Of a stretch of 64,000 bases of DNA, positions 6,255 through 50,698 are shown one piece after another. Position 1 is the stretch's first letter, and each line of letters starts with the position of its first letter. The notes below the pieces were generated by a model that worked only from the letters and a program-made list of their open reading frames with translations, made no database searches and was not told where the DNA came from. A program made the position numbers and the translations under genes. Source of the DNA: an uncultured Campylobacter sp. (lineage in GTDB: Bacteria > Campylobacterota > Campylobacteria > Campylobacterales > Campylobacteraceae). The DNA lies in assembly GCF_938045205.1 (NCBI RefSeq), contig NZ_CALIMY010000138.1, positions 8,619-72,618 on the forward strand, read 5' to 3'.

Positions 6255-8575
<2,321 letters not shown>

Positions 8576-11236: not shown

Positions 11237-11250
11237 TGTGAAAGGTGGCT

Positions 11251-24030: not shown

Positions 24031-24089
24031 ACGATCGTAGCGACGAGAATTTTAAAAATTCAAAAAACGCCGAGAATACTAAAGCATAT

Positions 24090-31223: not shown

Positions 31224-31309
31224 ATTTAGCCCTTTTGGTATTATAAAAGCGTTGATTATACATTAAAATTTTCGAAATAAAATAATCAATCTTTAATTAG
31301 GGAAAAACT

Positions 31310-31939: not shown

Positions 31940-31981
31940 GCGCGACCGCACTAAAATCTCGGCGAAATTTTACTTCAAATT

Positions 31982-33811
31982 ATGAAAAATTCTATCTCTG
32001 AGCTCGCGGAAAATTTTAATTCAAAATCCGCTTTAAATTTTATCTCAAATCAGACGTGCAAGCGTGTGAAAGACACAGCGCCTGGCGGTGTGATAAATTT
32101 CGCTCCAGCTTCCCGCTTCAAAAGAAATTTTAAATTTAAAGATGCGACTGCCGAGTTAAATTTTATCAGCGTGCGAAATTTAAAATTTTATCCCACTTCG
32201 GCTGGTTTCGCCGCACGCAATCGTGCCTCGGTCGGTTTTGCCGTGCACAGTCTCGTAGCGCCCTATTCCGCTCCGCGCGTCAGAAATATCGAAAAAAAAG
32301 TTACTTTAAATTTTGCGGCTCTTGTGCCAAATTTAAACTCTGCGCAAATTCTGAACTGCGCCGAAAATAAAGCTTTAAATTCCGCAAAAGCCCCCACAAT
32401 AAATCCTTGCGAAAATTCCGCAAGAAATTTCAAACGAAATTTTATATTAAATTGTGCGGAAAATTTTACTTGCAACGGCGCAAATAGCGCGAGTTCGCTA
32501 AGCCGTGCAAGCGTCGTAGACGATCCAAATTTAAGCTCCGCAAAAAGCCATGTCGCCGCTCACATGCGACGCTCAAAGAAAAATTTTACCGATATCATTG
32601 CAAAGGGCCACGGCTTCGCTCAAGCGCTGCAGGGGTTTGGATTGAAAAATTTTGAGGCGCGGAATTTCGCGAAGAAATCTAATTCGGCAGAGAATTCTAG
32701 CTCTGCTCGAAGCTTAAATTCCGCGCAGAATTTCGATTTCGCGCAAAGCTCGAATTCTACGCAGAGCCCTGCTGCCGCGCAAAATTCTGCCTTTACGCAA
32801 AGCTCGAATTCCGCGCAGAGTTTCGGGCAAAATTCTAGTTCCGCGCAAAACCGCGCGCAAAACCCCGTTCCGCCTAGCAGGCTGTGGGATCTGGGGCTGC
32901 TTTTCGTAGCGATCGTTTGGGGCTGTACCTTCGTGCCGGTTCAGCGCGCGCTGCATAGCGGCGACGTTTTTAGCTTTTTGTTTTGGCGCTTTTTGGCGGC
33001 GAGCATTTTTACCTACCTCGCCTGCCTGCGCTTCGGCATCAAATTTGACCGCGGCACGATAGGGCGGGGCGTGTTTTGCGGGCTGATGCTATTTTGCGAT
33101 TTTTCGTGCCAGACCATAGCGCTTGATTATGCGCTATCATCGACGGTGGCGTTTATTTTGGGGCTCAACGTCGTCATCGTGCCCTTTTTGATGCTTGTGT
33201 TTTTCGGTAAAAAGGTCGGTGCGAGCGCCTTTGGCGGCGCAGTCGTGGCGCTTTTTGGGTTGTATTTTTTAAGCGGAGCAAGCGGCGCGGTGGGATTTGG
33301 CATAGGCGAGCGGCTGACGCTAGTTTCGGCGTTTGCATACGCGCTTCACATCGTCTTTACCGGCGTCTGCGCGCGCAAAAGCAATCTCTACGGCTTTGTG
33401 ATCGTGCAGTTTATCTGCGTCTGCGTCTGCGCGCTGATCGCGGCGGTTTTCACTCCTCACGCGCAGTTTGAAGGCGAGATAAGAGTACTTGGAAATTTGA
33501 TCTTTTCGCCGAGTTTTGATTTCGTTTTCGCGCTGGTTTTGACCTCGATCTTTGCTACCGTCGCGGCGTTTGTGATCCAAACGATGGCGCAAAACCGCGG
33601 CGTAAGCGAGATAAAAACGGTGCTTATTTTCGCGCTGGAGCCCGTAAGCGCTGGCATAATGGGGTATGCTTTCGGCGAAAAGCTAAGCGCGCTTCAAATT
33701 TTAGGCGCGACGCTGATACTCGCAGGTATCCTGCTTAGCGAGCTGGGTTGGCTTTTAGGCGCGAAGTTTGCTAAAGATCGAGCTTGCGAAAAAACAGACC
33801 GAGGCGACTAG
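31982..33811 (+). CDS. EamA/DMT-family transporter with a long repeat-derived N-terminal extension
   Basis: The 10-TM EamA core starts near 32882 (LWDLGLLFVAIVWGCTFVPVQ). No ATG, GTG or TTG lies immediately upstream of TM1. The frame is open back to ATG 31982, and the only other in-frame ATG is at 32564. Confidence 0.72.
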   Translation: MKNSISELAENFNSKSALNFISNQTCKRVKDTAPGGVINFAPASRFKRNFKFKDATAELNFISVRNLKFYPTSAGFAARNRASVGFAVHSLVAPYSAPRVRNIEKKVTLNFAALVPNLNSAQILNCAENKALNSAKAPTINPCENSARNFKRNFILNCAENFTCNGANSASSLSRASVVDDPNLSSAKSHVAAHMRRSKKNFTDIIAKGHGFAQALQGFGLKNFEARNFAKKSNSAENSSSARSLNSAQNFDFAQSSNSTQSPAAAQNSAFTQSSNSAQSFGQNSSSAQNRAQNPVPPSRLWDLGLLFVAIVWGCTFVPVQRALHSGDVFSFLFWRFLAASIFTYLACLRFGIKFDRGTIGRGVFCGLMLFCDFSCQTIALDYALSSTVAFILGLNVVIVPFLMLVFFGKKVGASAFGGAVVALFGLYFLSGASGAVGFGIGERLTLVSAFAYALHIVFTGVCARKSNLYGFVIVQFICVCVCALIAAVFTPHAQFEGEIRVLGNLIFSPSFDFVFALVLTSIFATVAAFVIQTMAQNRGVSEIKTVLIFALEPVSAGIMGYAFGEKLSALQILGATLILAGILLSELGWLLGAKFAKDRACEKTDRGD

Positions 33812-34558
33812 GATTATCGAGGCGCCGCTGGTTAGATTGAGCTTAAAGCTCAAAACAAGCCCCGCCGCGCAGAAAAGCGCCGATAGCGCGCAGCTTATCG
33901 CCATCATCGAGCCTAAGTTTTTTGAAATTTTTTCGGCGATGAAAGGCGGGATCGTCATCAGCGAGATCACCAAGATTAGTCCTACGATCTGAATCGATGC
34001 GACCACCGCGAGGCTCGCCATCACTACGAGGACGTAGTAAAAGACGCTCGTATTCACTCCGCGCAGCAGGGCGAATTCCTTATCGAAGCTGATCGCCAAA
34101 AACTGTCTGTAAAAGCATGCCGTAAGCGCCGCAAATGCCGCGCCGCAAATGCCGATGAAGATTAAATTTTCATGATTTATCGCTAAGATCGAGCCGAATA
34201 AAAAGCTCATCAGATCGGATTTGTATCCGGGCGTGAGATCGGCGAAGATTATCCCCAGCGCCATTCCAAACGCCCATATCGCGCCGATTACGGCGTCGAA
34301 GCGCTCGGTATTTCGTAGCGTGACGTAGGCGATTAGCAGCCCCAAAAACAGCGCAAATACGCTAGCTCCCAGTACGGGCGAGATGCCTAAAAATAGCGCG
34401 ATGCCGATGCCGCCGTATGCGCCGTGCGCGATGCCGCCTGCTATGAAGCTCATGCGATTTATCACGACTAAAGAGCCTACGACGCCGCAGACTATACTGA
34501 CCAAAAGTCCGCCAAGTAGGGCGTTTCGCATGAAATCGTAAGATAAAATTTCAGCCAT
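33755..34558 (-). CDS. Metal (Zn/Mn) ABC transporter permease, ZnuB-like (ABC-3 family)
   Basis: 267 aa and polytopic, immediately downstream of and overlapping the ATPase gene. Confidence 0.85.
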   Translation of the reverse strand: MAEILSYDFMRNALLGGLLVSIVCGVVGSLVVINRMSFIAGGIAHGAYGGIGIALFLGISPVLGASVFALFLGLLIAYVTLRNTERFDAVIGAIWAFGMALGIIFADLTPGYKSDLMSFLFGSILAINHENLIFIGICGAAFAALTACFYRQFLAISFDKEFALLRGVNTSVFYYVLVVMASLAVVASIQIVGLILVISLMTIPPFIAEKISKNLGSMMAISCALSALFCAAGLVLSFKLNLTSGASIILVASVCFFASSIFSKLRA

Positions 34559-35318
34559 TTTCGCCCTCCTTGCAGCAGCATTCGTTAAGCGCGAGATCGA
34601 CGGCGCAGAAGTGTCCGTGCTCGCGTCGCAGGTGATCTAAAAATTCCGCTCTGCCTCCCGGATCGATCTCATGAGTGTGCGCCGAGCCGTTTGCGACGTA
34701 AAGCGCGCGGTTTGCGTAGTTTAGCGCAAGCTGCACATCGTGGCTGATTAGAATTATGCCGCAGCCGCTCTCGTTTAGGGATTTTAAAAGCTCGTAAATT
34801 TGAACCTGCCCCATCGTATCGATGCTCGCTAACGGCTCATCGAGAAGTAAAATTTTAGCCTTCGCGCACAGCGCCCGCGCGATGTAAACGCGCTGTCTTT
34901 GTCCGCCGCTAAGCTCGCTGATACGGCAGCCTGCTAAGCTCTGCATGCCTACGCGCTCCAGGGCTTGCATGGCTTGCTCGCGCTCGGATTTAGAGTAAAA
35001 GCCGAAAATTTTCTTATCTATCAGCCCCATTAAAACGACTTCGAGCACGCTTATGGGAAAGCTTTTGTTTATCGCGATGAATTGCGGCACGTAGCCCATT
35101 TGCGCCCTGGCAAGCGCGGGCGATCTGCCTAAAATTTCGATCGTGCCCGAGCTTGGTCGCAGCAGCCCCAAAAGCAGCTTCAAAAGGGTGCTTTTGCCGC
35201 CGCCGTTGGGCCCGAAAATCGCTAAAAAATCGCGCAGCTCGTAGCTTAGGTTTATATCTTTTAAAATTTCGCGTTTTTCGTAAGCAAAGTTTAAATTTCT
35301 TATCGTCACGTCCGCCAT
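34551..35318 (-). CDS. Metal ABC transporter ATP-binding protein, ZnuC-like, with His/Cys-rich C-terminal tail
   Basis: It has the Walker A GPNGGGKSTLLK, the signature LSGGQRQRVYIARAL, the Walker B ILLLDEPLASID, and the tail HTHEIDPGG...HGHFCAVDLALNECCCKE. The ATG at 35318 (MADVTIRN) is preferred over 35381. Confidence 0.88.
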   Translation of the reverse strand: MADVTIRNLNFAYEKREILKDINLSYELRDFLAIFGPNGGGKSTLLKLLLGLLRPSSGTIEILGRSPALARAQMGYVPQFIAINKSFPISVLEVVLMGLIDKKIFGFYSKSEREQAMQALERVGMQSLAGCRISELSGGQRQRVYIARALCAKAKILLLDEPLASIDTMGQVQIYELLKSLNESGCGIILISHDVQLALNYANRALYVANGSAHTHEIDPGGRAEFLDHLRREHGHFCAVDLALNECCCKEGENG

Positions 35319-35417
35319 GAACGCCCTTTCGCCTAGATTTTGAAAGTATTTATTATAGCCCAAATTCGGAAAAATTGCCAAATTTTGCTATTATTACAAA
35401 AAATTTAAAGGCTAGCG

Positions 35418-36332
35418 GTGGAGAAAATCGGCGAAAAATCAGATGAAAATAACTGGGATAAAAAGTCCGAAAGTTACGCTAAATTTAGCGGCGAGCTAGG
35501 GGATTTTGGCAAGCGGGTGTTTGAGATATTGCGCGGCTGGGGCGTGAGCTTTGCTGGCAAAAGCGTGCTAGACGTGGGCGCCGGCACGGGGGTTTACTCG
35601 CTGTATCTCGCGTCGCTGGGCGCCAAGGTTACGGCGATCGATAGCTCGGAGGGGATGCTGCGCGAGCTAAGGCGTAGCGCGCAGGAGTTTGGCATTAGCT
35701 TGCAAAACGTATTAAATTTAAGCTTTGCGGAGTTTTGCGAGCGGCTTAGCCGCGATGGTTTTGCAGACGCGGTGGGCGAAAATTTTAAAATTTATCCGCG
35801 TTCGCAGAGTAAAATTTCAAACGCGCAAACCCAAGAAAGCGCCGCACAGGCTTTAAATTTTAAAAATTCTGCGAGCAAAACCCGCGAGAGCGAAAATTTT
35901 AAAATTCCCGCAGTTTTTGATATCGCGTTTCTTACGATGAGCCCTGCACTGAAGAGCACGGAGGATTTTGAGGCGTTTTTGGCTTTAGGCGAGCGAAAAA
36001 TTTATCTAAACTGGGCGAGCGAGCGCAATTCATCGATGCTTGCGCCGCTTTTTGAGCGCTTTGGCACGGGGCATAAAAGACTTGCTACCGCCGCCGAAAA
36101 GTTCGAGGCGCTACTAAAGACGCGCGACATCAAATTTAAAAGCGAAATTTTAACTGAAAAGCGCGAGCAAAAACGCAGCCTGCAAGAAGCTGTGCAAAAC
36201 GCCGCATGGCACCTACATATGGACGGCGCGAAGGCCAGTGAGCGCGAGATCGAGGAGCTTTTAAAAAAGCGGGCTAAAGGCGGGATGATAAGCGATGAGA
36301 TCGAAGCGAGTTTTAAGCTGTTTTATATTTAG
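35418..36332 (+). CDS. Class I SAM-dependent methyltransferase carrying an in-frame repeat insertion
   Basis: Motif I is VLDVGAGTGVYSL, followed by VTAIDSSEGML. An insertion of about 45-60 aa bounded by ENFKI repeats precedes VFDIAFLTMSP. Confidence 0.8.
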   Translation: MEKIGEKSDENNWDKKSESYAKFSGELGDFGKRVFEILRGWGVSFAGKSVLDVGAGTGVYSLYLASLGAKVTAIDSSEGMLRELRRSAQEFGISLQNVLNLSFAEFCERLSRDGFADAVGENFKIYPRSQSKISNAQTQESAAQALNFKNSASKTRESENFKIPAVFDIAFLTMSPALKSTEDFEAFLALGERKIYLNWASERNSSMLAPLFERFGTGHKRLATAAEKFEALLKTRDIKFKSEILTEKREQKRSLQEAVQNAAWHLHMDGAKASEREIEELLKKRAKGGMISDEIEASFKLFYI

Positions 36333-37167
36333 CCTGGCGCCGCTTTTGGGGCTTTGCGGCAATCTTTTCTCGCCGCTTGAGATGCCTAAATACGACCCGC
36401 AAAAGGCGCGGCTGGGCGCAAAAATTTTTACTGACGTAAGATTTAGCAGCAAAGGCCGCTCCTGCGAAAGTTGCCACAACTTCTATCTAAACGATTCGGG
36501 TGCTTCGGTGCGCGATGGACGCGTGCCTACGCTCATAAATTCTTATTATTTTGACCGCTACTTAGGCGATTATAATTTCGCGGGCTTTGAAGCGCGGATC
36601 GCAGCGTCGGTCTTTGGCACGAACGAGCTTAATGCGAGCGAAGATAAAATTTTAGAGCTTATTAGGAAGAATTTAGCCTACAAGCAGGCTTTTGAAAGTG
36701 CTTACGGCGAGGCGAATATGGCGAACTTCATTGATGCGCTGGCGGAATTTTTAAAGTCCAAAACGGCGATAAATTCCAAATTTGACCGATTTTTGCGCGG
36801 CGAGGTTAAGCTAAATGATGCCGAATATAACGGATATGTGCTTTTTGTGCGGCTGTGCTCGGCATGTCATAACGGCGTTAGCCTAGGCACCGGCAGCTTT
36901 ACTAAAATTCGCCCAAGCGTAGAAGAGGAGGATGCGCCTAGACACAGGCTCACTTCCGATGGATTTGAGTTGCGCCGCGTGCCTAGCTTGCGCAATATCA
37001 CGCAAACCGCGCCTTACGTAAACGGGCAGACGGATTTGCGTCTTGCGGTGCGGCAGATTGCAAAGGATCTGCTAAAATACGATCTTAGCGATGGGGAGCT
37101 TGATGCTTTGATGAGCTTTTTAGCTACACTTAAGGGCGAGATGACGGAGGCGCAGGATGAAAGATAA
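36295..37167 (+). CDS. Di-haem cytochrome c peroxidase / MauG-family protein
   Basis: It has a signal peptide and two CxxCH motifs (CESCH and CSACH) at CCP-like spacing. It overlaps both neighbouring genes. Confidence 0.82.
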   Translation: MRSKRVLSCFIFSLAPLLGLCGNLFSPLEMPKYDPQKARLGAKIFTDVRFSSKGRSCESCHNFYLNDSGASVRDGRVPTLINSYYFDRYLGDYNFAGFEARIAASVFGTNELNASEDKILELIRKNLAYKQAFESAYGEANMANFIDALAEFLKSKTAINSKFDRFLRGEVKLNDAEYNGYVLFVRLCSACHNGVSLGTGSFTKIRPSVEEEDAPRHRLTSDGFELRRVPSLRNITQTAPYVNGQTDLRLAVRQIAKDLLKYDLSDGELDALMSFLATLKGEMTEAQDER

Positions 37168-39577
37168 GATAATGTGGACTTTGATGGTGGGGATTATGAT
37201 ATTAGGCATAATCATCGCCGGGAATTATTTCTCGTCGCTAAGAGATGTAGCGAGATTTAGCACGATTTCGCGCGAGCTAGCTTTGATCGATAACGCCGAT
37301 AACCGCTTAAATATATTATTTGATGCAAAGATCGCAAGAAGGGACTTTTCGATTGCAAATGCCGATATGCGCGGCATCTATCAGGTGCTGCAAGCTCTAC
37401 AAAAAGACAAAATCATCGATAAAATTGGACTTAGCAGCGATGTGCGCGCGATCGGAAGCGCTTTTAGCGATAAAATTTCACTTTTGGACGAGCTTGGGGC
37501 TTTAAATTCGCAGAATTTAATCCTTTTTCAAAGTCTGCAGCAAAAATTTTTATCCAGTGGCGCAAATGCGCAAAGAGCAAATCTCTACTCTCAAATTTTA
37601 GGGCTTAACTATAAAAATCGCTCCGAGATCTCTGCTTTAAAAAGTGCGCTAGAAAGCGCAGATGCGTCAAGCCCCGACGAAGCTGCGTTTATAGGAATTG
37701 CGCGGCAAATTTTAAGGAATTTCGAGCGGCAAAATATCATTGTAAGCGATAATCTCTCGTTGCTCAACGAGCGCTTCGCAAGCCTGCGCGAGCGATTTTC
37801 TTACGCTAGCGAGGAATTTTACGGCTCGTTTATGCAAATGACGATGCTTTACACGGCGGTGTTTTTGTCGTTTTTACTGCTTACTTACATCATAAATTCC
37901 GATGCTTTGCGTAGTAAACGCGCCCTCGCGCCCTATCACGCACTATGCGAACAAGCAGGCGAAGCGATAGTTTTAGCAGATCAAAACTTTAAAATTTTAT
38001 ACGCTAATAAAAGCGCGCTTAGCTTAAGCGGCTACGAACAAAGCGAGCTGGAAGGAAGCGATCTTGGAGTTTTGATGCCCAAAGATAAAGGGATCGAACT
38101 TCCTGCGATGGTAAATAAAAGCGCCAAAGATACGCGCCTGCTTCGTAAAAACGGCGAACTAGCCGATGTGAGCCTAAGGCTAGCAAATATCGCCGCTGCA
38201 TCCAAGCCGCCGCTATATGCGCTTTACGCTCATGATATCGGCGAGCGCGAGATTATGAAGCTAGCTCTTGCGAGCGCGAAGGAGAGCTTAAACAATCAAG
38301 TCTATATCGATCATCTTACGGGCCAGGGCAACGAAGCAGCGCTATACGAGCTAATAAACGCCGAAAAAACGGGCGTAGCGATCTACATCACTATCGTAAA
38401 TTTTGCAAATTTACGGCTTTTTTACAAGGCGGAGACGACGAATGAAATTCTGCGCTCCTTTGCGCGTACGCTTGCGATGTGTATCGAATCGCACGAGATC
38501 AAAGCCAGTATCTTTCGCATCCAATCGGATGAGTTTTGCCTATTTTACGAGGGACTAAATGTCGCGCGCGACGTGGAGATCATAAACAAATATTTCACCG
38601 ACAAGGTTTTTAATCTCCATACGACCGAGGGCTTTGCCTCCGCGCCTTTAAATATCACGATGGGCGTAAGCGAGCGTGCCGACGTAGCGGGCGGCGCAAA
38701 TAGGGTCTTTCAGGCGGTTATGGCGATGTATGAGGCGCAGAGCAAAAACGAGCACGTGGGCTTTTACTCGCGCCCAAATGCGATTGAGGAAAAATATCTG
38801 CAAAACCAGATTATGATCAACACCATTCAAAACGCGATCAAGAAAAATCAAGTCTTTGTACTCGTTCAGCCCATATTTGATATTACTCACCGCGATCCTA
38901 CCGGCAACACATACGGCACCGAGGGCGGTGATTATGTTCCCTTAGTATATGAAATTCTAATCCGCCTAATCGACCGCTCGGGCAAGACGCGCTGCCCGGG
39001 TGAGTTTATCGACATCGCAAAGCAAACCTCGCTCTACATCCCGCTAACTCAGGTCGTAATAAACGAAGCCTTTCGCTTGCTAGACCGCTTCGCAGGGACT
39101 TGCTTTAGCATAAATCTTTCATATTTTGACATCGCAAACGAAGGTATCAAGGAACTTTTAGAGCGCAAGCTCGCATCCAGCCCAAATGCTTCAAATTTAT
39201 TTATTGAAATTTTAGAAAGCGAGGAATTCGACGATTACGAGAGTCTACGCAGCTTCATCGCCGTAGCCAAAAACTACGGCTGCAAGGTCGCGATAGACGA
39301 TTTTGGCAGCGGATACTCCAACTACTATAGAATTTTAACGCTCGACGTGGATTATATAAAGATCGACGGAGCGCTCATCAAAAACATCGCAAACGACAAA
39401 AACTCGCGCGCCATCGTCGAAACGATCGCTAACTTCGCGCGCAAGCAGGGCTACGAGCTCATCGCCGAATACGTAGAAAACCACGAAATTTCAATCATCT
39501 TAGAAGAGATGGGAATTAAATATATGCAGGGCTACTTCTACAGCAGGCCGATGGAGCCTTCGAGGATAAAATTCTAA
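37157..39577 (+). CDS. Membrane sensor: periplasmic domain - PAS - degenerate GGDEF - EAL (probable c-di-GMP phosphodiesterase)
   Basis: 806 aa with a periplasmic loop flanked by two TM helices. The PAS-like segment is EAIVLADQNFKILYANKSALSLSGYEQSELEG. The GGDEF position reads QSDEF. The EAL landmarks are intact: EILESE, DDFGSGYSNY, DYIKIDG, AEYVEN and QGYFYSRP. Confidence 0.86.
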   Translation: MKDKIMWTLMVGIMILGIIIAGNYFSSLRDVARFSTISRELALIDNADNRLNILFDAKIARRDFSIANADMRGIYQVLQALQKDKIIDKIGLSSDVRAIGSAFSDKISLLDELGALNSQNLILFQSLQQKFLSSGANAQRANLYSQILGLNYKNRSEISALKSALESADASSPDEAAFIGIARQILRNFERQNIIVSDNLSLLNERFASLRERFSYASEEFYGSFMQMTMLYTAVFLSFLLLTYIINSDALRSKRALAPYHALCEQAGEAIVLADQNFKILYANKSALSLSGYEQSELEGSDLGVLMPKDKGIELPAMVNKSAKDTRLLRKNGELADVSLRLANIAAASKPPLYALYAHDIGEREIMKLALASAKESLNNQVYIDHLTGQGNEAALYELINAEKTGVAIYITIVNFANLRLFYKAETTNEILRSFARTLAMCIESHEIKASIFRIQSDEFCLFYEGLNVARDVEIINKYFTDKVFNLHTTEGFASAPLNITMGVSERADVAGGANRVFQAVMAMYEAQSKNEHVGFYSRPNAIEEKYLQNQIMINTIQNAIKKNQVFVLVQPIFDITHRDPTGNTYGTEGGDYVPLVYEILIRLIDRSGKTRCPGEFIDIAKQTSLYIPLTQVVINEAFRLLDRFAGTCFSINLSYFDIANEGIKELLERKLASSPNASNLFIEILESEEFDDYESLRSFIAVAKNYGCKVAIDDFGSGYSNYYRILTLDVDYIKIDGALIKNIANDKNSRAIVETIANFARKQGYELIAEYVENHEISIILEEMGIKYMQGYFYSRPMEPSRIKF

Positions 39578-40152
39578 TCTCATCTCGCCGCAGCCTTATG
39601 ACCCGCCTTTTTAAATTTACGAGCCAAAGATCGTCTTCGTAAGGCGATAAATTCTGTTTTAGCAAGCCGCCGCTTTAATTCATACGAAATTTATCTTGGC
39701 AAATACTACGCGGTTTTATCGCGAACTTATGGTGCGCCTTATAGCTAAATTGCCAAAAAAGCTTACGCGTGGCAAATGAAGTGAGAGCTAAATTTAAAAT
39801 TTAATAGCGGATTTATGGATGAAATTTTGCGAAGTTCAAAATTTTAAAATTCTAAGCCGTAGAATTTTAAAATTTAAAATGCGCGAACTGCAAATTTAGG
39901 GCTAAATTTTAAAATTCCGTAGCGATAAAATTTTAAATTCCGCACCTTAAATCCGCCTGCAAATTTTAAAATTTTACGGCGCAAATTTCGATCTATTCGT
40001 TTTATAACATTTCGCGCGAGCTTTACAAAATAAAATTTTAGTGCGCCTCGCTCTAAATAACGATAGAGCTTTCAAATGCAGGCGGAATTTTTAAGTGCAA
40101 ACTTCCCGCTTCAGCAAAAATGGGTTTAAGCTTTAGGCTTTAGCGCATTAGC
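39578..40152. repeat. Densest RAATTY / AAATTTTAAAATT(T/C) repeat field
   Basis: No ORF. I count 15 RAATTY hexamers between 39790 and 39988, including AAATTTTAAAATT(T/C) units at about 39839, 39862, 39904 and 39961. Confidence 0.75.
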
Positions 40153-41676
40153 TCAAGCAAATTCGCTCCAAGCCTTCATGCTCCCCGTATCCTTAAATCT
40201 TTGATGCCACGACAGCGCCTCGCTTAGGATGTGCGGAGTATGCCCAGCACAGGGCTGCGCACATGCCCGCTCGAAATAATCTTTCAGTGCGTCTTGGTAA
40301 GTGGGATGTGCGATACTTATCATCGCGCGAGCCCGCTCACGAGGGCATTTACCACGCAGATCGGCGATGCCGTATTCGGTGATGATGACTTGAGTGTCGT
40401 GCTCAGTATGATCGACGTGGCTCACGAATGGCACGATAGCGCTGATTGCGCCGCCTTTAGCGAGCGATGGGCTCAAAAATAGCGACAAATATCCGTTGCG
40501 AGCGAAGTCACCGCTACCGCCAATACCGTTTTTCATCTGCGAACCCATGACGTTAGTGGAGTTTACGTTGCCGTAGATGTCCGCCTCTAGCATGCCATTC
40601 ATCGATACGACGCCGAGCTTTCTGATGAGCGCTGGCGAGTTGGAGACATCTTGCGAACGCAGTATAATGTGCTTGCGGTAGAAATCGATGTTTTTTTGAA
40701 ATTCCTCGACACCTGCGGGGCTAAGCGATAGCGCCGTGGCACTTGCAGTGCCTACGACGCCTCTTTTGATGAGATCTAGCATGCCGTCTTGGATCACCTC
40801 GGAGTAGCACTGCAGCCCTTGGTAGCCAGCATTTTGTAGTGAGCTAAGCACGGCGTTAGCGACGTTGCCGATGCCCGATTGTAGCGGCAGTAGCTTCTTT
40901 GCGGGAAGTCTGCCGCAAGCTTCCTCGTTTTTTAAGAATTTTACGACGTTGCGCCCGATCGCACTTGAAATTTCATCCACGGCGGTAAAATTATTGACGC
41001 GATCATGCGTCCTAGCCTCTATGACAGCGATTACTTTGGCAGGATCTACATGCATATAGAGGCTGCCTACGCGATCGCCTACGTGCTTGATCGGCAGATC
41101 CGCAGCGTGCGGAGGTAGGCGCAGATCCGTAACGTCGTGAATACCCTCCAGCTCAAGCGGCTGATAGTAATTCACTTCTAAAATAACGCGATCGGCGATA
41201 TCGAGCCAGGCTTGGTTGTTGCCTAGCGATGTGGACGGCACGAGCTCGCCGCTTTCTTTAATCGCCACTACTTCGATCACGGCAAAGTTTAGATGTGGAA
41301 AAAAGCCAGCTTTAAGCTGCGCGGCAAGGCTTGATAGATGCACGTCCGTGTATCGTACGGCGCCGCTATTTATCGCACGGCGCATATCGGCATCCGTAAA
41401 AAACGGCGCGCGAAAGCTCACGGCACCTGCTTTTGCCAAAACTCCGTCTAAAAGCAGATCGGTCGATGCGCCCGTAAAAATTTCGATTTGATAGGGCTCG
41501 CCTTTTTTGTGCAGCGTTGTCGCTCGTTGCGCCAGAGCCTGCGGCAGCGCTAGTGCGCAGCCCGCCCCAACAAAGCCGCTAAAGCCCACCGATGCGCCAT
41601 TTGGGATCAGTTCGCAGGCTTTCTCGGCGCTCATAATTTTTGATTTTAGATATTCGTTTTGCACGCGTGAGTTCAT
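40153..41676 (-). CDS. Acetyl-CoA hydrolase/transferase family protein (succinyl-CoA:acetate CoA-transferase-like)
   Basis: About 507 aa. It has GASVGFSGF near the N-terminus and the family motif NGIGGSGDFARN. The start at 41676 (MNSRVQNEYL) is preferred over 41703. Confidence 0.88.
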   Translation of the reverse strand: MNSRVQNEYLKSKIMSAEKACELIPNGASVGFSGFVGAGCALALPQALAQRATTLHKKGEPYQIEIFTGASTDLLLDGVLAKAGAVSFRAPFFTDADMRRAINSGAVRYTDVHLSSLAAQLKAGFFPHLNFAVIEVVAIKESGELVPSTSLGNNQAWLDIADRVILEVNYYQPLELEGIHDVTDLRLPPHAADLPIKHVGDRVGSLYMHVDPAKVIAVIEARTHDRVNNFTAVDEISSAIGRNVVKFLKNEEACGRLPAKKLLPLQSGIGNVANAVLSSLQNAGYQGLQCYSEVIQDGMLDLIKRGVVGTASATALSLSPAGVEEFQKNIDFYRKHIILRSQDVSNSPALIRKLGVVSMNGMLEADIYGNVNSTNVMGSQMKNGIGGSGDFARNGYLSLFLSPSLAKGGAISAIVPFVSHVDHTEHDTQVIITEYGIADLRGKCPRERARAMISIAHPTYQDALKDYFERACAQPCAGHTPHILSEALSWHQRFKDTGSMKAWSEFA

Positions 41677-41703
41677 TTTCCGTCCTAGCCGTGATTTGGG
41701 CAA

Positions 41704-42628
41704 AATTATAATATTTTTGCGCTAAATTTCAAAATCTAAAATTTCGTGCACGAGCTAGGCTATAGAGCAAAATATGGGGGGTGCGGTCGGTTGGGATACG
41801 CCGCAAACGCTTCCGATTAGGCTTTTTTTGCTTCGGCGGTTTGCAATACCCGCTTGCGCGAGCGCTCGGTAAATAGGATTTTAAGCGTGATTGAAGCTTG
41901 GTTAATGATCTAGCTACGATATCATTAAACGCTTATCTCACACCAAATCTTGCGGAATTTAGGCGCAAAATTTACGCATAATTTATGAGCTGCGATATTT
42001 AAATTTAAGCTTCCTTTTGCAATTTAATCGCTCGCCGCACTCAAATTTAAATCCCCAACTTGTAATTTTAAAATAGATGTTTTGAAATTTATCGCTCGTG
42101 GCGTTCAAATTCCGCGTCTAGCGAGCCTTGAACTCATATTTGAAATTGCATCACTTGCGGTGCACGCCTTTGCACGCCGCGCTTGGATTTTAATTCCGCA
42201 TTAATTGAAATTCCCCCTGTCTGGAATTCTTGCCTCTTCGCACAAGACGGCGGTTTAAAATTTCAGATTTCGCGCTTTTTTTGGGGGCGACTCGACGTAG
42301 ATACGCAAAATTTTGATATTTTACGCTTGCAAAATTCTAAAAATTATATCATCGTCACGGATAGATTGCAGATTTTGTTTAAATTCTAGTTCTTAAAATT
42401 GTAGCTTCAGCCGTTACACGAGATTTTTAATTCAAAGAGCATTGCCGCGCAAATTCTAATCTCTGCTGAGCCCAAAAATTGACAACGCTTAAGACACAAA
42501 TTTAAACGCGTTTTAGAATTTAAAATTTAGCCCGCCTTGTTACCATTTTCGGTCGAGCTTTATAAAATTTCGGCAAATTTTATACTTGCAAAATTTTAAA
42601 CTCTATCGCCGCAAAATAGGGCAAAATT
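41704..42628. repeat. 0.9-kb non-coding repeat field
   Basis: There are no credible ORFs. AAATTT/GAATTT/AAATTC cores occur throughout, and there is a local hairpin GTTAATGAT...ATCATTAAC at about 41901-41930. Confidence 0.65.
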
Positions 42629-43147
42629 TCATCTCTGCGGCTTGCCGTCGCCGAATTTTGCGACTATCTCATCGCTGCAGCTCTCCTTGGGCGCCCAGCC
42701 TTCGCGCTTCATCCGCGCCAGATTGTCGCATGCCTCCTGCGAGCCGCCTTCGCAAAGCTCGTCGTATATCACGAGGCTACGGCACTGCCCGCTCGCAAAG
42801 CTCTCCAGCGCCGCGGCGTTGCCTAGACAGGCTCGCTCGCGCAGATCGCTCATCGCGCGCCCGCCTGCGCCGCCCATTTTATCTCCCTGCTTCCGCTCGG
42901 CGAGGGTGGCGAGCTCGCACGCATCTGCGAAAAAGCCCTGCGCTTTGAGGCGGTTTCGCACGACGCCGCGACCGCCCAGCTCGTATCTCATCGCCGCTTC
43001 GTAGCATGCGGCGGCGTCCTTTTTGCTGCATTTTGCTAAAAGCGCGCTGGTTTTTGCGCCGCTAAATTTAAACTCTTTGGCTTCGCTGCCCGCGCTTGCC
43101 AAACTAAGCGCCAGCGCCGCAGCCAGCGCAAGCTTTAAAGCTTTCAT
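42629..43147 (-). CDS. Secreted Sel1-like-repeat cysteine-rich protein (Hcp-like)
   Basis: It has the signal peptide MKALKLALAAALALSLASA and repeated C-x-A-C...G-G modules (CSKKDAAACYEAAMRYELGGRG). Confidence 0.78.
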   Translation of the reverse strand: MKALKLALAAALALSLASAGSEAKEFKFSGAKTSALLAKCSKKDAAACYEAAMRYELGGRGVVRNRLKAQGFFADACELATLAERKQGDKMGGAGGRAMSDLRERACLGNAAALESFASGQCRSLVIYDELCEGGSQEACDNLARMKREGWAPKESCSDEIVAKFGDGKPQR

Positions 43148-43285
43148 CTTTACTCCTTTTTCGTTTATCCGCTCGCACGCTTCGATTTACCGCCTCATCG
43201 CGCTGTACCCGTTGCCCGCTAAAATTTAAAAGGCTCACGCGCCTTATTTGCGATCGAAGCTTGGAATTTTATCGCCTCTGCCGCG

Positions 43286-43852
43286 CTAATTTTTCGGCAG
43301 CAGATCGAGCACCGCGCAGGCGCGCTTGTTGTGCATTTTACACGCTTTATCTAGCGCTTTCCCCGAGAGCTCAAAGCTTTGAGGGGTGCCGATTCCTTGT
43401 AGATATTTGACCGACAGCTCGTAGCAAGCTTCGCTACTGCCGGCATCGCACTGCTCGCGAAAAAGTTCAAACGACGCCACGACGTCCTTCTCCACGCCCA
43501 AGCCCCGCCCTAGCGCATCTGCGTAGAAAAAGCACGACAGCTGATCTTTTCGTTCGCAGCCGCTTTTCAGACCACGCGTGACGCGCTCGCAGGAGCCTTC
43601 GTCGCTTTTTACGATGCAGCTTTGCAGATCCGCCCGTGAAATTCCGTCCGTTTGGATGACCGCATCGGCGCTGCTTTGCGAGCCGGCGCTTGCTCCGCCG
43701 CTCTTTATAAAGCGCGCGTTTTGCGTGGCAGTTTCGCCGATACTCGTTGTTTTGTCCGTTTTGCCCGCCGCAGAAGCTTTATCCGCTGGCGCGCTCTCGC
43801 CGCAGTTTGCCGCAAGTGCGCAAAGTAGCGCCAAAAATAGAAATTTTTTCAT
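43286..43852 (-). CDS. Sel1-like-repeat cysteine-rich lipoprotein (Hcp-like)
   Basis: MKKFLFLALLCALAANCG has a lipobox-like signal. Paired Cys modules include CERKDQLSCFFYADALGRGLG and CDAGSSEACYELSVKYLQGIG. Confidence 0.76.
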   Translation of the reverse strand: MKKFLFLALLCALAANCGESAPADKASAAGKTDKTTSIGETATQNARFIKSGGASAGSQSSADAVIQTDGISRADLQSCIVKSDEGSCERVTRGLKSGCERKDQLSCFFYADALGRGLGVEKDVVASFELFREQCDAGSSEACYELSVKYLQGIGTPQSFELSGKALDKACKMHNKRACAVLDLLPKN

Positions 43853-43989
43853 ACCAGCCTCCGTTAAATTTCGCGCCATTTTAATTAAAAATGCTGAATT
43901 TAAGAGAAATACGCTTCGCCTTAAATTTCAGCTCTATGTCGCAACGCGTTTAAAGCGCGAAATTTAAAGTGCGGCGCCGAAGCGATCGA

Positions 43990-44421
43990 TCACAGGCTCT
44001 TTAGCGCCGCGAGTACGTTTTGTGCGTCCTGCTCGGGTTCAGCGATGCGGCTAAAGCGCTTTATCTCTTTGCCGCCTCGAAAAATCAGGGTTTGGCGGTG
44101 GTAAAATTTCTTCCCATCGCCGGTAGTGAAGGTTTCGAGCCCAAGCGGCGCTTCAAGCTCGAATTTTTTGTCGTTTATGAACTCAAACGAGGCGCCCGTA
44201 GCGCGCTTAAACTCGCTCGTGCCCGCCTCGCCCATGCTGCCTACGGCGATAAGCTCAAAGCCGAGGGCTTTTATCTGCGCAAGCGCGCTCTCATAGGCCT
44301 TGCATTGAAGCGTGCAGCCCGTAAGCCCCGCCGCATCACGCAACTCTGCGGGCAGAAATTTGCCGCTGTCGCCCATTTTCGGATAGGTAAAAACCACGCA
44401 ATTTTTCGGTAAATTTATCAT
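43990..44421 (-). CDS. Bcp/AhpC-TSA-like thiol peroxidase family protein
   Basis: The GCTLQC motif sits in a thioredoxin-fold context (VVFTYPKMG...LTGCTLQCKAY). The start is uncertain (44421 versus 44460). Confidence 0.65.
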   Translation of the reverse strand: MINLPKNCVVFTYPKMGDSGKFLPAELRDAAGLTGCTLQCKAYESALAQIKALGFELIAVGSMGEAGTSEFKRATGASFEFINDKKFELEAPLGLETFTTGDGKKFYHRQTLIFRGGKEIKRFSRIAEPEQDAQNVLAALKSL

Positions 44422-44523
44422 CTCTCGCCTTTTGATCGAAATAGGTCGCAAAAATAGCATAAAAAATCTTAAACCCGCTTAACGGATGAAATTTTAATAA
44501 AATTTATCCCACATTTCGGGCTT

Positions 44524-45534
44524 TTACTCGTTGTTTCCCGCGATCGTTTCGATTAGTTTGCGTTTGTTGCGGCGGTTGTAAAGCACCGACGAAAGGAGCG
44601 ATAGCGCGATGAATAAGATCCCCACGGTGCCCGTTATGATCTCGCTTACTTCAAATTTCAGCTTGGCAAACATTATAAACGCCAAACACGCGATAGCATA
44701 GTGCGCGCCGTGCTCCAGATACGCGAAGTGCGACAGCGTGCCGCGAGCGATGAGATACAGCGTGATGGAGCGCACGAACATCGCGCCAGCACCTAGCCCC
44801 AGCATAATGATGAAGATATTATCGCTTAGCGCAAACGCGCCGATCACGCCGTCGAAGCTAAAGCTCGCGTCCAGAGTTTCTAAATACAAAAAGCCCGCGA
44901 GACCGTTTTTTACGCCGTCCGTGCCGAAAAGGCGGTCGAAGCAGGAGATGAGCAGATAGAGCAGGATCGCGCCGAAATACGCCGCGCCGAGCGTAGCCGA
45001 GCCCATTTTAGCAAGCAGCACGAGCCCCGCGGCTAGAGCGATCAGCGTGGGCACGTTTGGAATGCGCTTTAAAAATCGCACGAGCCCGTTATTTTCGATT
45101 ATGCCCAGCCAGTGTAGCTCGCGCTGCGCATCGAAGAAAAAATCGCAAAAGACCATCAGCAAAAAAGCGCCCCCGAAAACATAAATTTGCGCCTCGTTCT
45201 CGCTTAAAATTTCATGGTAGCGGTGCGGCTGCTTAAGCGCTAGCACGAGGGTTTCCCAAAGACCCAGATGCGCGCTAGCCGCGACTATTAGCACGGGGAA
45301 TAAAAACCTCATGCCAAAAACCGCGATCGGAATGCCCCAGAGGATAAATCTGCTCTGCCACACCGGCGCCATATCTTTTAGCACCTTGGCATTGACTACG
45401 GCGTTGTCGAAGCTAAGGCTGATTTCGAGTGCGCACAAAAGTGCGCAGATATAAGCGGCACCCGCACCGCCGATATAAAACGCGATAGCAAGCGCAATTA
45501 GGCTTACTACAAAAGAGGAGTAAAAATATTTCAT
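44524..45534 (-). CDS. DUF475/TerC-like integral membrane protein
   Basis: It has the duplicated motifs SLSFDNAVVNAKVL and LDASFSFDGVIGAFA. Alternative start at 45570. Confidence 0.78.
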   Translation of the reverse strand: MKYFYSSFVVSLIALAIAFYIGGAGAAYICALLCALEISLSFDNAVVNAKVLKDMAPVWQSRFILWGIPIAVFGMRFLFPVLIVAASAHLGLWETLVLALKQPHRYHEILSENEAQIYVFGGAFLLMVFCDFFFDAQRELHWLGIIENNGLVRFLKRIPNVPTLIALAAGLVLLAKMGSATLGAAYFGAILLYLLISCFDRLFGTDGVKNGLAGFLYLETLDASFSFDGVIGAFALSDNIFIIMLGLGAGAMFVRSITLYLIARGTLSHFAYLEHGAHYAIACLAFIMFAKLKFEVSEIITGTVGILFIALSLLSSVLYNRRNKRKLIETIAGNNE

Positions 45535-45621
45535 CGCTGTCCTAGCCGATTTTTTGCGCGATTTTAGCAAAATTTAGCCCTAAATTCTATATAATTGCAA
45601 AAATTCCAAAAAAGGCAAACG

Positions 45622-46941
45622 ATGCTTACCAATCCCGTATTTATCAGTATCTGTGTGATGTGCGCGCTATGCTTGCTGAGGTGCAACGTAATGCTCGCGA
45701 TCCTAATCGGCACGATATGCGCCGTGCTCTCAAGCAATATCCCGCTGGGCGATGCCATAAATTTATTCATAAACGGCAACCCTGAAAACGCCGGTAGCCT
45801 CGGTATGGGCGGAAATTTAGAAACCGCGCTTTCATATCTGCTGTTAGGCGTCATCGCAAGCGCGATCTCAAAGACGAACTTAACGGCGATCTTGGTGCGC
45901 GCGGTGGCAAATTTAATCAGCGACAAAAAATACGTCTTTATCTTTTCGATCGCCTTTTTTGCGTGCTTCTCACAAAATTTAATCCCCGTGCATATCGCCT
46001 TTATCCCGATTTTGATCCCGCCGTTAGTCAAGATCATGAACTCGCTAAAGATCGACCGCCGCGCCGTAGCGTGCGCGCTGACGTTCGGCTTGCAGACGCC
46101 GTATATGGCGCTGCCGCTGGGATTTGGACTTATCTTTATGGGGCTAATCGAAAAAAATATGAACGCAAACGGCATCGCGGTAAGCCTTGGCGACATATCA
46201 AGCGTGATGTGGCTAAGCGCCGTGCCGATGCTCGTGGGCCTCATCCTGGCCGTGATCTACTACCGCAAGCCGAGGGAGTATGCCGAAACCAAACAGAGCC
46301 TGGACGCACATTTTAGCGAGCTTAGGATGGGTATGCGCGAATGGGGTGCGCTAGCGGGTATCGCGGTGTGCTTCGCGGTGCAAATTTGGATCAAATCCCT
46401 TCCGTTTGCCGCGCTTAGCGGAATTTTAGTAATGCTTGTGAGCAAAGGCATCGAGTGGAAGAAGCTCGATAATGTATTTGACGAGGGCGTGCATATGATG
46501 GGCTATATCGCGTTTTTGATGCTGATCGCCGCAGGATACGGCACGATCTTAAAAGAAACCGGCGGCGTGAACGAGCTGGTGCACGTAGCGAGCACTTTAA
46601 GCGGCGGCAAGCTAGGCGGTGCGCTGCTGATGATCGGCATCGGACTGCTGGTGACGATGGGTATCGGCTCGAGCTTCGGCACGATCCCTATCATCGCTAC
46701 GATATATTGCCCGCTAGCCGCGCAGCTTGGCTTTAGCACGGCGGCGACGATCTTTATCATCGGCGTGGCTGCGGGTATCGGCGATGCAGGCTCGCCTGCG
46801 AGCGATAGCACGCTCGGGCCTACCGTGGGGCTGAATATCGACGGCGAGCATAGCCATATGTGGGATACCTGCGTGCCGACCTTTATTTTCTTTAATATCC
46901 CGCTGATCATATTCGGCATAATCTTTTCGATGATGCTTTGA
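45622..46941 (+). CDS. NhaC-family (YuiF-like) Na+/H+ antiporter-type transporter
   Basis: About 440 aa with 10 or more TM helices and a Gly-rich loop pattern typical of the NhaC C-terminal family. The assignment is made by resemblance only. Confidence 0.7.
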   Translation: MLTNPVFISICVMCALCLLRCNVMLAILIGTICAVLSSNIPLGDAINLFINGNPENAGSLGMGGNLETALSYLLLGVIASAISKTNLTAILVRAVANLISDKKYVFIFSIAFFACFSQNLIPVHIAFIPILIPPLVKIMNSLKIDRRAVACALTFGLQTPYMALPLGFGLIFMGLIEKNMNANGIAVSLGDISSVMWLSAVPMLVGLILAVIYYRKPREYAETKQSLDAHFSELRMGMREWGALAGIAVCFAVQIWIKSLPFAALSGILVMLVSKGIEWKKLDNVFDEGVHMMGYIAFLMLIAAGYGTILKETGGVNELVHVASTLSGGKLGGALLMIGIGLLVTMGIGSSFGTIPIIATIYCPLAAQLGFSTAATIFIIGVAAGIGDAGSPASDSTLGPTVGLNIDGEHSHMWDTCVPTFIFFNIPLIIFGIIFSMML

Positions 46942-47124
46942 AATTTTATAAAATTTAGCCGCGCGGCTTTGCTTTTAAATTTGCCTGCGCGATTTTGCCA
47001 AAATTTATCTGCGTCGCTCGCACGATCGGCTTAAATTTAACCGCTCGCGGCGCGTTGATGAAAATCATTGCTAAAATTTGAAATTTCGCATAAAATGGGC
47101 GAAATTTCATAGCAAGGAGCGGCG

Positions 47125-47568
47125 GTGGAACGAATTTATCCTTACGTGCAGATCGTGCATCTCATCTGCGCCATTATCTTTTTGGGCTACATATTTTTCG
47201 ACGTCGTGATTTTTTCACGGCTTAAAGGCACGCTGGGCGCGGATTTTGAGCGCGTTAAAAAGGCGATTGGCTCGCGCGCGATTAAGATCATGCCGGTTTG
47301 CCTTTTTACGCTGATAATCACCGGCGGAATGATGATGAGCCGTTGGGTCGGAAGCGCTAACGGCGGGTATTTCGGCACGCCGCTTCAAAAAATCTTTATG
47401 CTAAAAGTCACGCTCGCGCTCATCATCGCCGTGTGCGTAGCGATAAATTTGAGCTGCCGCGCGATGGGAAGGCCCGCGCCTGAGTTTTTACGAGCGAACA
47501 TCCACAAAATCGCCTTTGTATTCGGCTTCATCATCGTGCTTTGCGCTAAGCTTATGTTTGTAGTATGA
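47125..47568 (+). CDS. Small integral membrane protein (4 TM, CopD/HemJ-like fold?)
   Basis: GTG start after GGAGCGGCG, with four hydrophobic segments. Confidence 0.55.
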   Translation: MERIYPYVQIVHLICAIIFLGYIFFDVVIFSRLKGTLGADFERVKKAIGSRAIKIMPVCLFTLIITGGMMMSRWVGSANGGYFGTPLQKIFMLKVTLALIIAVCVAINLSCRAMGRPAPEFLRANIHKIAFVFGFIIVLCAKLMFVV

Positions 47569-48181
47569 TTTATAGCGCAAAATTTAGCGCTGGCGGCACG
47601 CTTTTATCGCGAAATTCTGTAGCGTGGCACAGATTTAATTTTGCTTGCTTTTAAAATACGACGCTTGCTAAAAATTTTAAAATTCCAATTTATCGAGCGG
47701 GCATAGGGATTTAAGAATTTTAAATTCCGCCGCGTCTGCACCAAAGCACGAAATTTTAAAATTTCACTCCTTTCTTGTGCTGTTTTGTCAAACGCAATCT
47801 GCAAAATTTAATCTCATAAAATTTTAAAATTTCATCGCAAGCTTTAAAGTGCTCGTAAAATTTCTCGCTCAATCCTACGCTGAAAATTTTGTAAAATTCT
47901 GTGGCTTTAAAATTTTGCAAAATTTTAAAAATTTTAAATTCTATCGCTAGGATGCGGATGAAAACTCTAAAAAAAGCTCGCGTGGAATCGAAGCAAACAA
48001 TGAAAAAGCGAATTTATTTAGCGACTTTACTTACTATTTAATAATCATTAAAGATATAAAAAGCTAAAATTGCTTTTCGCCTGCGGGCGAATTTAATGTC
48101 TGCTTGCCATTCGGGCGGGATTTTGAGGTTTTCCGTAGCCGTGGCAATGGTTTTGAAATTATTTATGAGAAAGGAAAAAGG
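47569..48181. repeat. RAATTY/AAATTTTAAAATTT repeat field
   Basis: Exact AAATTTTAAAATTT units lie at about 47752 and about 47820, with many partial units. Confidence 0.7.
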
Positions 48182-48991: not shown

Positions 48992-49011
48992 TTTTAAAAA
49001 AGGGGGACGCT

Positions 49012-49815: not shown

Positions 49816-49879
49816 TTTAAAGTGGCGATGGACGGAATTCTATTCGCCGGCAAATTTTAGTAAAATTTAAAGGAATTTT

Positions 49880-50683: not shown

Positions 50684-50698
50684 TTCAAAGGACAAAAT

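Follow-up and report, generated by a model that had tools for sequence, protein, structure and literature searches.

DNA uptake by Campylobacter jejuni needs methylated RAATTY sites (R, purine; Y, pyrimidine), and why this site is so common, beyond what an AT-rich genome would bring about, has not been clear. The question is raised in a sharper form by a 64-kb stretch of DNA from an uncultured Campylobacter sp. (assembly GCF_938045205.1, contig NZ_CALIMY010000138.1, positions 8,619 to 72,618; hereafter, the window), in which the GC content is 46.4% and composition cannot explain a RAATTY density that exceeds that of C. jejuni. Long spacers of the window, exemplified by the one at 39578-40152 (hereafter, the index spacer), are mosaics of AT-rich and GC-rich words. 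The original prediction, made from the letters alone, was that they are fields of RAATTY hexamers and of a self-complementary 14-mer, AAATTTTAAAATTT, which could serve as a reservoir of uptake signals or, alternatively, be a nucleoid-protein binding array or a family of elements resembling repetitive extragenic palindromes (REP). Here we show that RAATTY is over-represented and protected from loss in coding and non-coding DNA alike, and that the constraint follows the degenerate R-AATT-Y specificity exactly. It is this evolutionary line of evidence that is new; the type of element itself is not. The literature on RAATTY that was searched consists of methylome and uptake studies, none of which covers C. 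gracilis (the group to which the window belongs, as described below), site conservation or intergenic arrays; the C. gracilis genome paper mentions neither RAATTY nor arrays.

RAATTY is over-represented in spacers and in genes

The window (positions 1-64000) contains 695 RAATTY sites, a density of 10.9 per kb (with both strands counted, a site every 46 bases), compared to 242 ± 13 in dinucleotide shuffles, a 2.9-fold excess; relative to base composition alone, the excess is approximately eightfold. For C. jejuni, with a GC content of 30.5%, published counts give one RAATTY per ~60 bases, and simple arithmetic on composition predicts a threefold fall from that density at 46% GC. The site is denser in spacers (24.8 per kb) than in open reading frames (ORFs; 8.2 per kb); 437 of the 695 sites lie within ORFs, 53 of the 55 ORFs carry at least one, with observed-to-expected ratios of 2 to 17 on the basis of base composition, and AAATTT is the top hexamer in coding as well as in intergenic DNA. 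The dense core of the index spacer (39790-39988) holds 15 sites in 199 bp, exactly as originally counted, but the expectation that accompanied this count, well below one, was too low, the local dinucleotide-preserving null being 3.2 (standard deviation 1.4, maximum 7 in 300 shuffles). Thus, the enrichment persists against a composition-matched null both locally and across the window. The claim that the long spacers are saturated with RAATTY holds for those that were named (16 to 41 sites per kb, compared to 8.2 in ORFs), but two other spacers, 25647-26429 and 46245-46502, are RAATTY-poor, and genes are enriched too. Furthermore, RAATTY density is no higher in long spacers than in short ones.

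When genes are shuffled synonymously, so that neither the protein nor the codon usage changes, 178 RAATTY sites are expected, compared to 430 observed (z = 24, 2.4-fold). By variant, the excess is 3.4-fold for AAATTT, 1.7-fold for AAATTC/GAATTT and 1.1-fold for GAATTC. AATT in the wrong context is depleted in genes, with YAATTR at 0.46 and YAATTY/RAATTR at 0.59 of the expectation. The choice between AAA and AAG at lysine codons that precede phenylalanine stands at 25:3 in favour of the site-making AAA-TTY, compared to 192:121 among lysine codons elsewhere. Across the window, 80% of all AATT tetramers are in the R...Y context, compared to ~25% in Neisseriaceae loci; in intergenic DNA, AATT is preceded by a purine in 90% of the cases and followed by a pyrimidine in 92%.

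The only two ORFs without RAATTY (29448-30239 and 46503-46919) both have a GC content of 0.57, and the former encodes an S-adenosylmethionine (SAM)-dependent methyltransferase of the small-molecule type; these two ORFs may be recent acquisitions or may be differently constrained. The highest density among ORFs (31 sites, 16.9 per kb) is that of ORF 31982-33811, in which the sole domain, EamA, begins at residue 301, and the 5' half carries an 18-bp tandem repeat, AATTCCGCGCAAAGCTCG, in 5.6 copies (32717-32817). This 5' half may be non-coding.

Conservation of RAATTY among related lineages

A scan of species-representative genomes, with the acetyl-CoA hydrolase encoded next to the index spacer as the query, yielded 49 related loci, nearly all of them carrying the label 'uncultured Campylobacter sp.' and one that of C. 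gracilis. Protein identity to the window is 96-98%, DNA identity is ~94%, and synteny extends over window positions 30.7-50.3 kb. Given this relatedness and the matching GC content of the published C. gracilis genome (46.55%), the window belongs to the Campylobacter gracilis group of the human mouth; five metagenome contigs of human, mostly oral, origin encode an identical copy of a protein adjoining the index spacer. Diversity was calculated per site (π) over the 49 lineages projected onto the syntenic region, and the alignment of the index spacer comprises 35 related lineages.

The AATT core shows a π of 0.006, compared to 0.027 for all RAATTY positions, 0.075 and 0.125 for intergenic non-motif A/T and G/C, respectively, and 0.110 for codon position 3. 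Among all tetramers in spacers, AATT is the least diverse, and the dip in diversity spans exactly the four core bases, with the adjoining positions at the background level. When each combination of lineage and site is counted, 0.33% of the core cells differ from the window compared to 8.5% at background A/T, an approximately 26-fold difference. RAATTY sites of the window are retained in 97% of the lineage comparisons, compared to 77-84% for YTTAAR, RAAAAY and RTTTTY; for the A-tracts without AATT (RAAAAY and RTTTTY), retention is at the background level of 77-82%. There is some turnover, with 23 positions at which RAATTY is present in other lineages and absent from the window. In the RAATTY-rich spacer 41704-42628 (21 sites, 22.7 per kb), π is 0.037 at motif positions, compared to 0.082 for A/T and 0.144 for G/C outside the motif. 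Of all classes of sites, the GC-rich filler that separates the AT words (30700-50300) evolves the fastest, with a π of 0.125-0.146 compared to 0.110 for codon position 3. The spacers are conserved AATT islands amid rapidly changing sequence.

The protection of AATT depends on its flanks. In intergenic DNA, π of the core is 0.006 in the full R...Y context (n = 86) and 0.043, that is, seven-fold greater, in the half context (n = 16); at synonymous sites, the values are 0.021, 0.071 and 0.126 for the full, half and no context, respectively, and when identical codons are compared, diversity at the third position is 2.4-10 times lower inside a RAATTY site. Spacer cores flanked by G or C (AAATTC/GAATTT) are as conserved as AAATTT cores. 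At the R and Y positions themselves, transitions, which keep the motif, are found in 4.6% of the cells compared to 6.6% in the background, and transversions, which break it, in 0.9% compared to 1.9%. Motif-breaking variants are five times fewer (0.071 per site) and also segregate at a lower frequency than background variants (p = 4 × 10−5), whereas motif-keeping variants in the flanks behave like the background (0.26 vs. 0.34 per site, p = 0.38). This shift in frequency speaks for selection or biased transmission, not low mutability alone. Among loci fetched with the same acetyl-CoA hydrolase query, those of the C. gracilis group have a share of 0.80-0.86 of their AATT inside RAATTY, compared to 0.43-0.74 for loci from other Campylobacter metagenome-assembled genomes (MAGs) and 0.19-0.33 for Neisseriaceae loci.

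The 14-mer and paired sites

As originally described, AAATTTTAAAATTT is its own reverse complement. This perfect palindrome is composed of two sites 8 bp apart (RAATTY-TA-RAATTY). There are nine exact copies in the window (at 695, 12476, 13121, 23442, 35780, 39961, 47751, 47819 and 57411) and 17 with one mismatch, 26 in total compared to 0.42 expected from dinucleotide shuffles. The coordinates listed earlier were right within 1-3 bases, but two of them, 29361 and 29381, correspond to 13-mers (AAATTTAAAATTT) rather than to 13/14 matches, and 11 copies had been missed. Seven of the 26 copies are within ORFs (8027, 12476, 15540, 35780, 35855, 35894 and 37984), and therefore, the motif is not confined to spacers: three of these copies (35780-35907) are inside the ORF for a SAM methyltransferase-like protein (35418-36332), and the exact copy at 12476-12489 is inside a carbon-nitrogen hydrolase gene. 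Beyond the AT word, the 26 copies have nothing in common, their flanking sequences being unrelated.

A fifth-order Markov (Markov-5) expectation for the 14-mer is 1.7-2.8 copies compared to 7-9 observed. Because this higher-order null explains part of the count, albeit not all of it, the 14-mer is largely a by-product of the hexamer bias combined with a preference for 8-bp pairing. Of 221 pairs of neighbouring RAATTY sites, 22 are spaced by 8 bp, 17 of these being RAATTY-TA-RAATTY, and a spacing of 6 bp never occurs. In the power spectrum of 11 spacers, RAATTY has no helical phasing at 10-11 bp (power 0.8-1.4 times the noise); a weak periodicity at 8.25 bp reflects the favoured RAATTY-TA-RAATTY arrangement.

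Structure and turnover of the spacers

The index spacer (39578-40152; 575 bp, 20 RAATTY sites, GC content 0.37) separates two convergent genes, one for a PAS/EAL-domain protein upstream (37157-39577, plus strand), the stop codon of which adjoins the spacer and which contains the 14-mer at 37984, and one for the acetyl-CoA hydrolase/transferase downstream (40153-41703, minus strand). Its dense core includes 14-mers at 39839, 39862, 39904 and 39961. Five independent human metagenome assemblies contain the spacer with 100% identity, and synteny is preserved in those related genomes that have contigs extending to it, so that an assembly artefact, a possibility raised along with the original prediction, is excluded. 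When orthologous spacers are compared, as had been proposed, the dense core turns out to be deleted, partly or wholly, in 9 of the 35 related lineages. Five of the six classes of deletions have short direct repeats at their junctions. Copies of AAATTTTAAAATT bound the deletions of 65 bp and 122 bp, another deletion lies between copies of GCGCGA and yet another between copies of AAATTCCG. The indels of the index spacer show neither terminal repeats nor target duplications. Because they are deleted in several lineages, with junctions in direct repeats, the arrays are dispensable, and the words of which they consist are the substrate of the slippage or recombination through which they evolve. The notion of special intergenic fields that act as a reservoir of uptake signals finds no support, given that the signal is genome-wide, in genes and at synonymous sites included, that the dense core can be deleted and that long spacers are no denser than others.

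Among the six copies that were folded, two are outstanding, namely, the hairpin at 721-750, with a 13-bp stem (z = -5.8), and an AT-only inverted repeat at 39839-39875 that has a 16-bp stem and encompasses two 14-mers (-12.2 kcal/mol, z = -6.8). Of the two hairpins claimed previously, the one at 721-750 is thus borne out, but that at 29379-29399 is less clear (z = -2.0); the remaining copies fold no better than shuffles, and hence, hairpin formation is not a general property. Repeat finders and Tandem Repeats Finder, run over the whole window, detect only short families of AT words, with two to eight copies and 60-85% identity. In the index spacer, there is no ORF longer than 49 amino acids, no Rfam match and no tRNA, and no tRNA was found in the rest of the window either. 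Between 39400 and 42800, promoter-like matches number 14 compared to 5.0 in shuffles, and terminator-like sites are at the chance level (4 vs. 5.0). No transposase domain was detected among the 45 window ORFs that were scanned.

The other long spacers range from 47569-48103 (20 sites, 37 per kb; 14-mers at 47672, 47751, 47819 and 47920), 57079-57659 (24 sites, 41 per kb; 14-mers at 57287, 57411 and 57637), 61840-62165 (11 sites, 33.7 per kb) and 30240-30668, which is between convergent genes (12 sites, 28 per kb; 14-mers at 30323 and 30580), to 18679-19492 (16 sites, 19.7 per kb) and 58845-59714, with a GC content of 0.51 (14 sites, 16 per kb; 14-mer at 58863). Examples of short spacers are 681-776 (6 sites, 62 per kb), with 14-mers at 695 and 751 and the 721-750 hairpin, which is perfect and GC-clamped, and 13074-13203, between convergent genes (8 sites, 61.5 per kb; exact 14-mer at 13121). 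Unlike most spacers, the one between dnaA and dnaN (9656-9811) is AT-rich (GC content 0.29) and yet contains a single RAATTY.

A candidate methylation tag and alternative explanations

In C. jejuni, the mark RA(m6A)ATTY (m6A, N6-methyladenine) is written by the orphan methylase CtsM and is required for DNA uptake, a dependence shown in this species only. RAATTY methylation with a conserved methylase is reported in C. coli, C. fetus (where the gene is present in 331/331 genomes) and C. hyointestinalis, with m6A on the third base of RAATTY in C. jejuni, C. coli and C. fetus, and orphan methylases with RAATTY specificity also occur in Spirochaetaceae and Akkermansia. The proposed link between RAATTY and CtsM is in accord with this literature, and the conserved unit identified here has the same degeneracy; as would be expected of a CtsM-type target, RAATTY is abundant in nearly all genes. 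That RAATTY is protected with the degeneracy of the enzyme, even at silent codon positions, suggests that the cell reads RAATTY and that loss of the site is disfavoured. We infer that this lineage possesses a protein that reads RAATTY, for which a CtsM-type orphan N6-adenine methylase, found across the genus, is the most parsimonious candidate.

On the strength of these comparisons, we assign a probability of about 0.6 to the explanation that the RAATTY sites are maintained as a candidate CtsM-type methylation and self-uptake tag, with the fields being not discrete elements but nearly saturated non-coding DNA. By analogy with C. jejuni, RA(m6A)ATTY would mark DNA as 'self' before uptake for natural transformation, and what maintains the sites would be either selection in favour of well-tagged DNA or uptake-biased recombination, a molecular drive as proposed for the uptake sequences of Neisseria and Haemophilus. 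Spacers would be the places where no other constraint limits the density of RAATTY, resulting in near-saturation, and RAATTY-TA-RAATTY would be a favoured compact arrangement of two sites. The recurrence of short words would allow the arrays to grow and shrink by slippage or recombination, giving rise to long, indel-polymorphic spacers. A more far-reaching version, in which RAATTY is a true uptake signal under molecular drive, more-methylated DNA is preferentially taken up and recombined, and the spacers are filled and lengthened by 8-bp pairs that dock a putative methyl-RAATTY receptor, is doubtful; if it is true, methylation-dependent uptake bias would remodel genome composition and intergenic length in mid-GC Campylobacter.

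Several observations weigh against maintenance of RAATTY as a methylation tag. The four variants are unequally enriched, GAATTC not being enriched at all; TTTAAA is 2.1-fold over-represented, and other AT-rich words are also mildly enriched in genes. The degenerate R and Y positions are A or T in ~80-87% of the sites, which could reflect a preference of the reader for AAATTT or an influence of AT-biased mutation on the flanks. No DNA methylase was detected among the 45 window ORFs scanned, and a Protein Data Bank (PDB) search with E. coli Dam returned no Campylobacter enzyme, the nearest relatives being Dam, DpnM and T4 Dam. The conservation data are all from a single region of 20 kb. Beauchamp and colleagues are said to have reported in 2017 that one methylated site suffices for uptake in C. 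jejuni, which would make selection on each of ~11 sites per kb hard to explain. Finally, the degeneracy of RAATTY amounts to an AATT minor groove without flexible pyrimidine-purine steps at its edges, and a protein that reads DNA shape could leave the same signature.

Such a reader could be an abundant nucleoid-associated protein that binds the narrow, rigid groove of AATT, the spacers being organising or silencing arrays and methylation being irrelevant. The R...Y flanks would fit, as the absence of a pyrimidine-purine step at the AATT edges, and so would the spacing of site pairs, which favours 8 bp (22 of 221) and never takes 6 bp, and the greatest density of RAATTY in spacers. We nevertheless regard this explanation as unlikely, because the A/T phasing at 10-11 bp that marks curved-DNA nucleoid arrays is absent, with only the weak 8.25-bp signal in its place, RAAAAY and RTTTTY are kept at the background level only (77-82%), synonymous sites in nearly all genes show the constraint just as clearly, dense arrays are dispensable, and a RAATTY-specific enzyme is known in the genus. 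The nucleoid-protein array of the original prediction is disfavoured on the first two of these counts. Active restriction targets are normally avoided in the host genome, which makes it improbable that a full restriction-modification system of the ApoI/XapI type targets RAATTY, with conservation as a by-product: RAATTY is 2.4-8-fold over-represented and its loss is selected against, and the RAATTY methylase is described as an orphan in Campylobacter and Spirochaetaceae. It is true that RAATTY is a classical type II specificity, that in C. fetus the RAATTY methylase is accompanied by an EcoRI-like one (GAATTC) and that GAATTC is the one variant not enriched here. A purely mutational or compositional origin, through slippage and context-dependent mutation, with AATT being hard to mutate, would be in line with the share of the 14-mer count that Markov-5 accounts for (1.7-2.8 vs. 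7-9), the generally lower diversity of AT-rich words compared to the GC-rich filler, the mild enrichment of other AT words and the repeat-mediated indels in the arrays. It is contradicted by the seven-fold greater diversity of AATT without the R and Y flanks, by synonymous codon choice biased toward making the site and by the 26-fold difference in rate, which we judge to be far beyond known context effects. Moreover, motif-breaking variants arise but stay rare, motif-keeping ones being neutral, whereas low mutability predicts no shift in frequency; this origin therefore appears very unlikely.

Transcription signals, be they the periodic AT-rich upstream elements seen in typical Campylobacter promoters, bidirectional terminators or operators of a palindrome-binding regulator, have a similarly slight chance of accounting for the arrays. 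The excess of promoter-like matches at 39400-42800 (14 vs. 5.0), the few copies that form hairpins just after genes and the perfect palindromy of the 14-mer are set against the convergent orientation of the genes on either side of the index spacer, 30240-30668 and 13074-13203, which calls for no promoter, the chance-level count of terminator-like sites (4 vs. 5.0), the failure of most copies to fold better than shuffles and a density of ~11 sites per kb, genes included, which is too high for a regulator. Least probable of all is a small mobile or recombinogenic extragenic family of the kind represented by REP and bacterial interspersed mosaic elements (BIMEs) or by miniature inverted-repeat transposable elements (MITEs). 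Such families have a consensus of ~20 bp or more with defined ends, but here no consensus extends beyond the AT word, the 26 flanks are unrelated, and the repeat families are short, with 60-85% identity. They are also restricted to extragenic DNA, unlike the sites examined here (7 of the 26 14-mers and 437 of the 695 RAATTY sites are in ORFs), and are associated with a transposase (RAYT or IS200-like) or with terminal inverted repeats and target duplications, none of which was found in the 45 ORFs scanned or at the indels of the index spacer, these indels being deletions between internal repeats rather than clean insertions. The self-complementarity of the copies, some with GC-clamped hairpins (721-750), their concentration in spacers and their polymorphic presence between lineages are what this explanation has in its favour; the REP-like family initially considered is abandoned for lack of shared flanks and of an extended consensus. 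From a practical standpoint, the spacers of oral Campylobacter that are mosaics of AT words and GC words are not to be annotated as repeat elements or regulatory arrays.

Comparison with known systems

The closest parallel is the CtsM system of C. jejuni, which involves the identical 6-bp degenerate palindrome in the same genus, at one site per ~60 bases compared to 46 here, and in nearly every gene. The differences are that the density here is ~8 times the base-composition expectation at 46% GC, compared to ~2.3 times calculated for C. jejuni, and that site-level selection or drive and dense intergenic arrays do not feature in the papers searched.

The DNA uptake sequences (DUS) of Neisseriaceae and the uptake signal sequences (USS) of Pasteurellaceae are likewise short, in genome-wide excess, more common in non-coding DNA yet also present in genes, and conserved between related lineages; some form inverted pairs that fold into hairpins after genes, and selection and uptake-biased recombination both apply to them. 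However, DUS and USS are non-palindromic, 9-12 bp long, read directly by a pilin or receptor and present at ~1 per kb, whereas RAATTY is a 6-bp degenerate palindrome at ~11 per kb, the recognition of which, by analogy with C. jejuni, would be methylation-dependent. The window thus shares with these systems a genome-wide excess that is greater in non-coding DNA, and conservation among relatives, but not a motif of at least 9 bp read as sequence, the flanks of the 14-mer being unconserved.

HIP1 (GCGATCGC) of cyanobacteria, similarly to RAATTY, is palindromic, hugely over-represented in genes and spacers, and the target of an orphan methylase; it was recently reported to raise transformation efficiency in a methylation-dependent manner. 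In contrast to RAATTY, HIP1 is an 8-bp, GC-rich, non-degenerate motif in an unrelated phylum, and its function is debated. REP/BIME and MITEs, such as Correia elements, are also self-complementary, form some hairpins and vary in copy number between strains, but each such family has a 20-150-bp consensus with definite ends, is confined to extragenic DNA and is linked to a transposase; none of these properties holds here. The GATC sites of Dam in Enterobacteria are a short palindrome that occurs genome-wide and is methylated by an orphan adenine methylase of the D12 class. To our knowledge, GATC is not comparably over-represented, and it functions in mismatch repair and origin sequestration via MutH and SeqA, whereas the dnaA-dnaN spacer of the window holds only one RAATTY.

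Other features of the window

The window encompasses the neighbourhood of the chromosomal replication origin, with gyrB (6254-8566, minus strand), dnaN (8576-9655, minus), dnaA (9812-11140, minus) and ruvC (11245-11730, plus). The sole Rfam match in the window is the bacterial small signal recognition particle (SRP) RNA at 3111-3208 on the plus strand (RF00169, 55 bits). At 48104-51502, there are four tandem paralogues of family-3 solute-binding proteins, spaced by 819-868 bp and 66-76% identical at the nucleotide level; the two that were scanned both match SBP_bac_3. An SbmA/BacA-like ATP-binding cassette (ABC) transporter at 23467-25646 is split between ORFs 23467-24030 and 24090-25646, which cover consecutive parts of the Pfam profile (5-108 and 112-253), and is either a frameshifted pseudogene or a split gene.

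Several observations concern the acetyl-CoA hydrolase gene and its upstream region. The nearest relatives of the encoded protein outside Campylobacter, at 64-67% identity, are from ruminant Neisseriaceae MAGs and Pseudoclavibacter (loci L055-L058, L060 and L063-L065); these relatives, lying outside other Campylobacterota, hint at horizontal transfer of the gene. In one lineage (L047, locus positions 8284-9781), there is ~1.5 kb in the place of 642 bp of the spacer upstream of this gene (window positions 41921-42563), a polymorphism that arose by insertion or replacement. A near-consensus sigma-70-like promoter (TTGAAA, 16 nucleotides, TATAAT; 11/12 matches) at 41705-41732 on the minus strand abuts the assumed TTG start of the gene at 41703. 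Gene calls in metagenomes give a protein of 507 amino acids compared to 516 from the assumed start, and the true start is probably located ~27 bases downstream.

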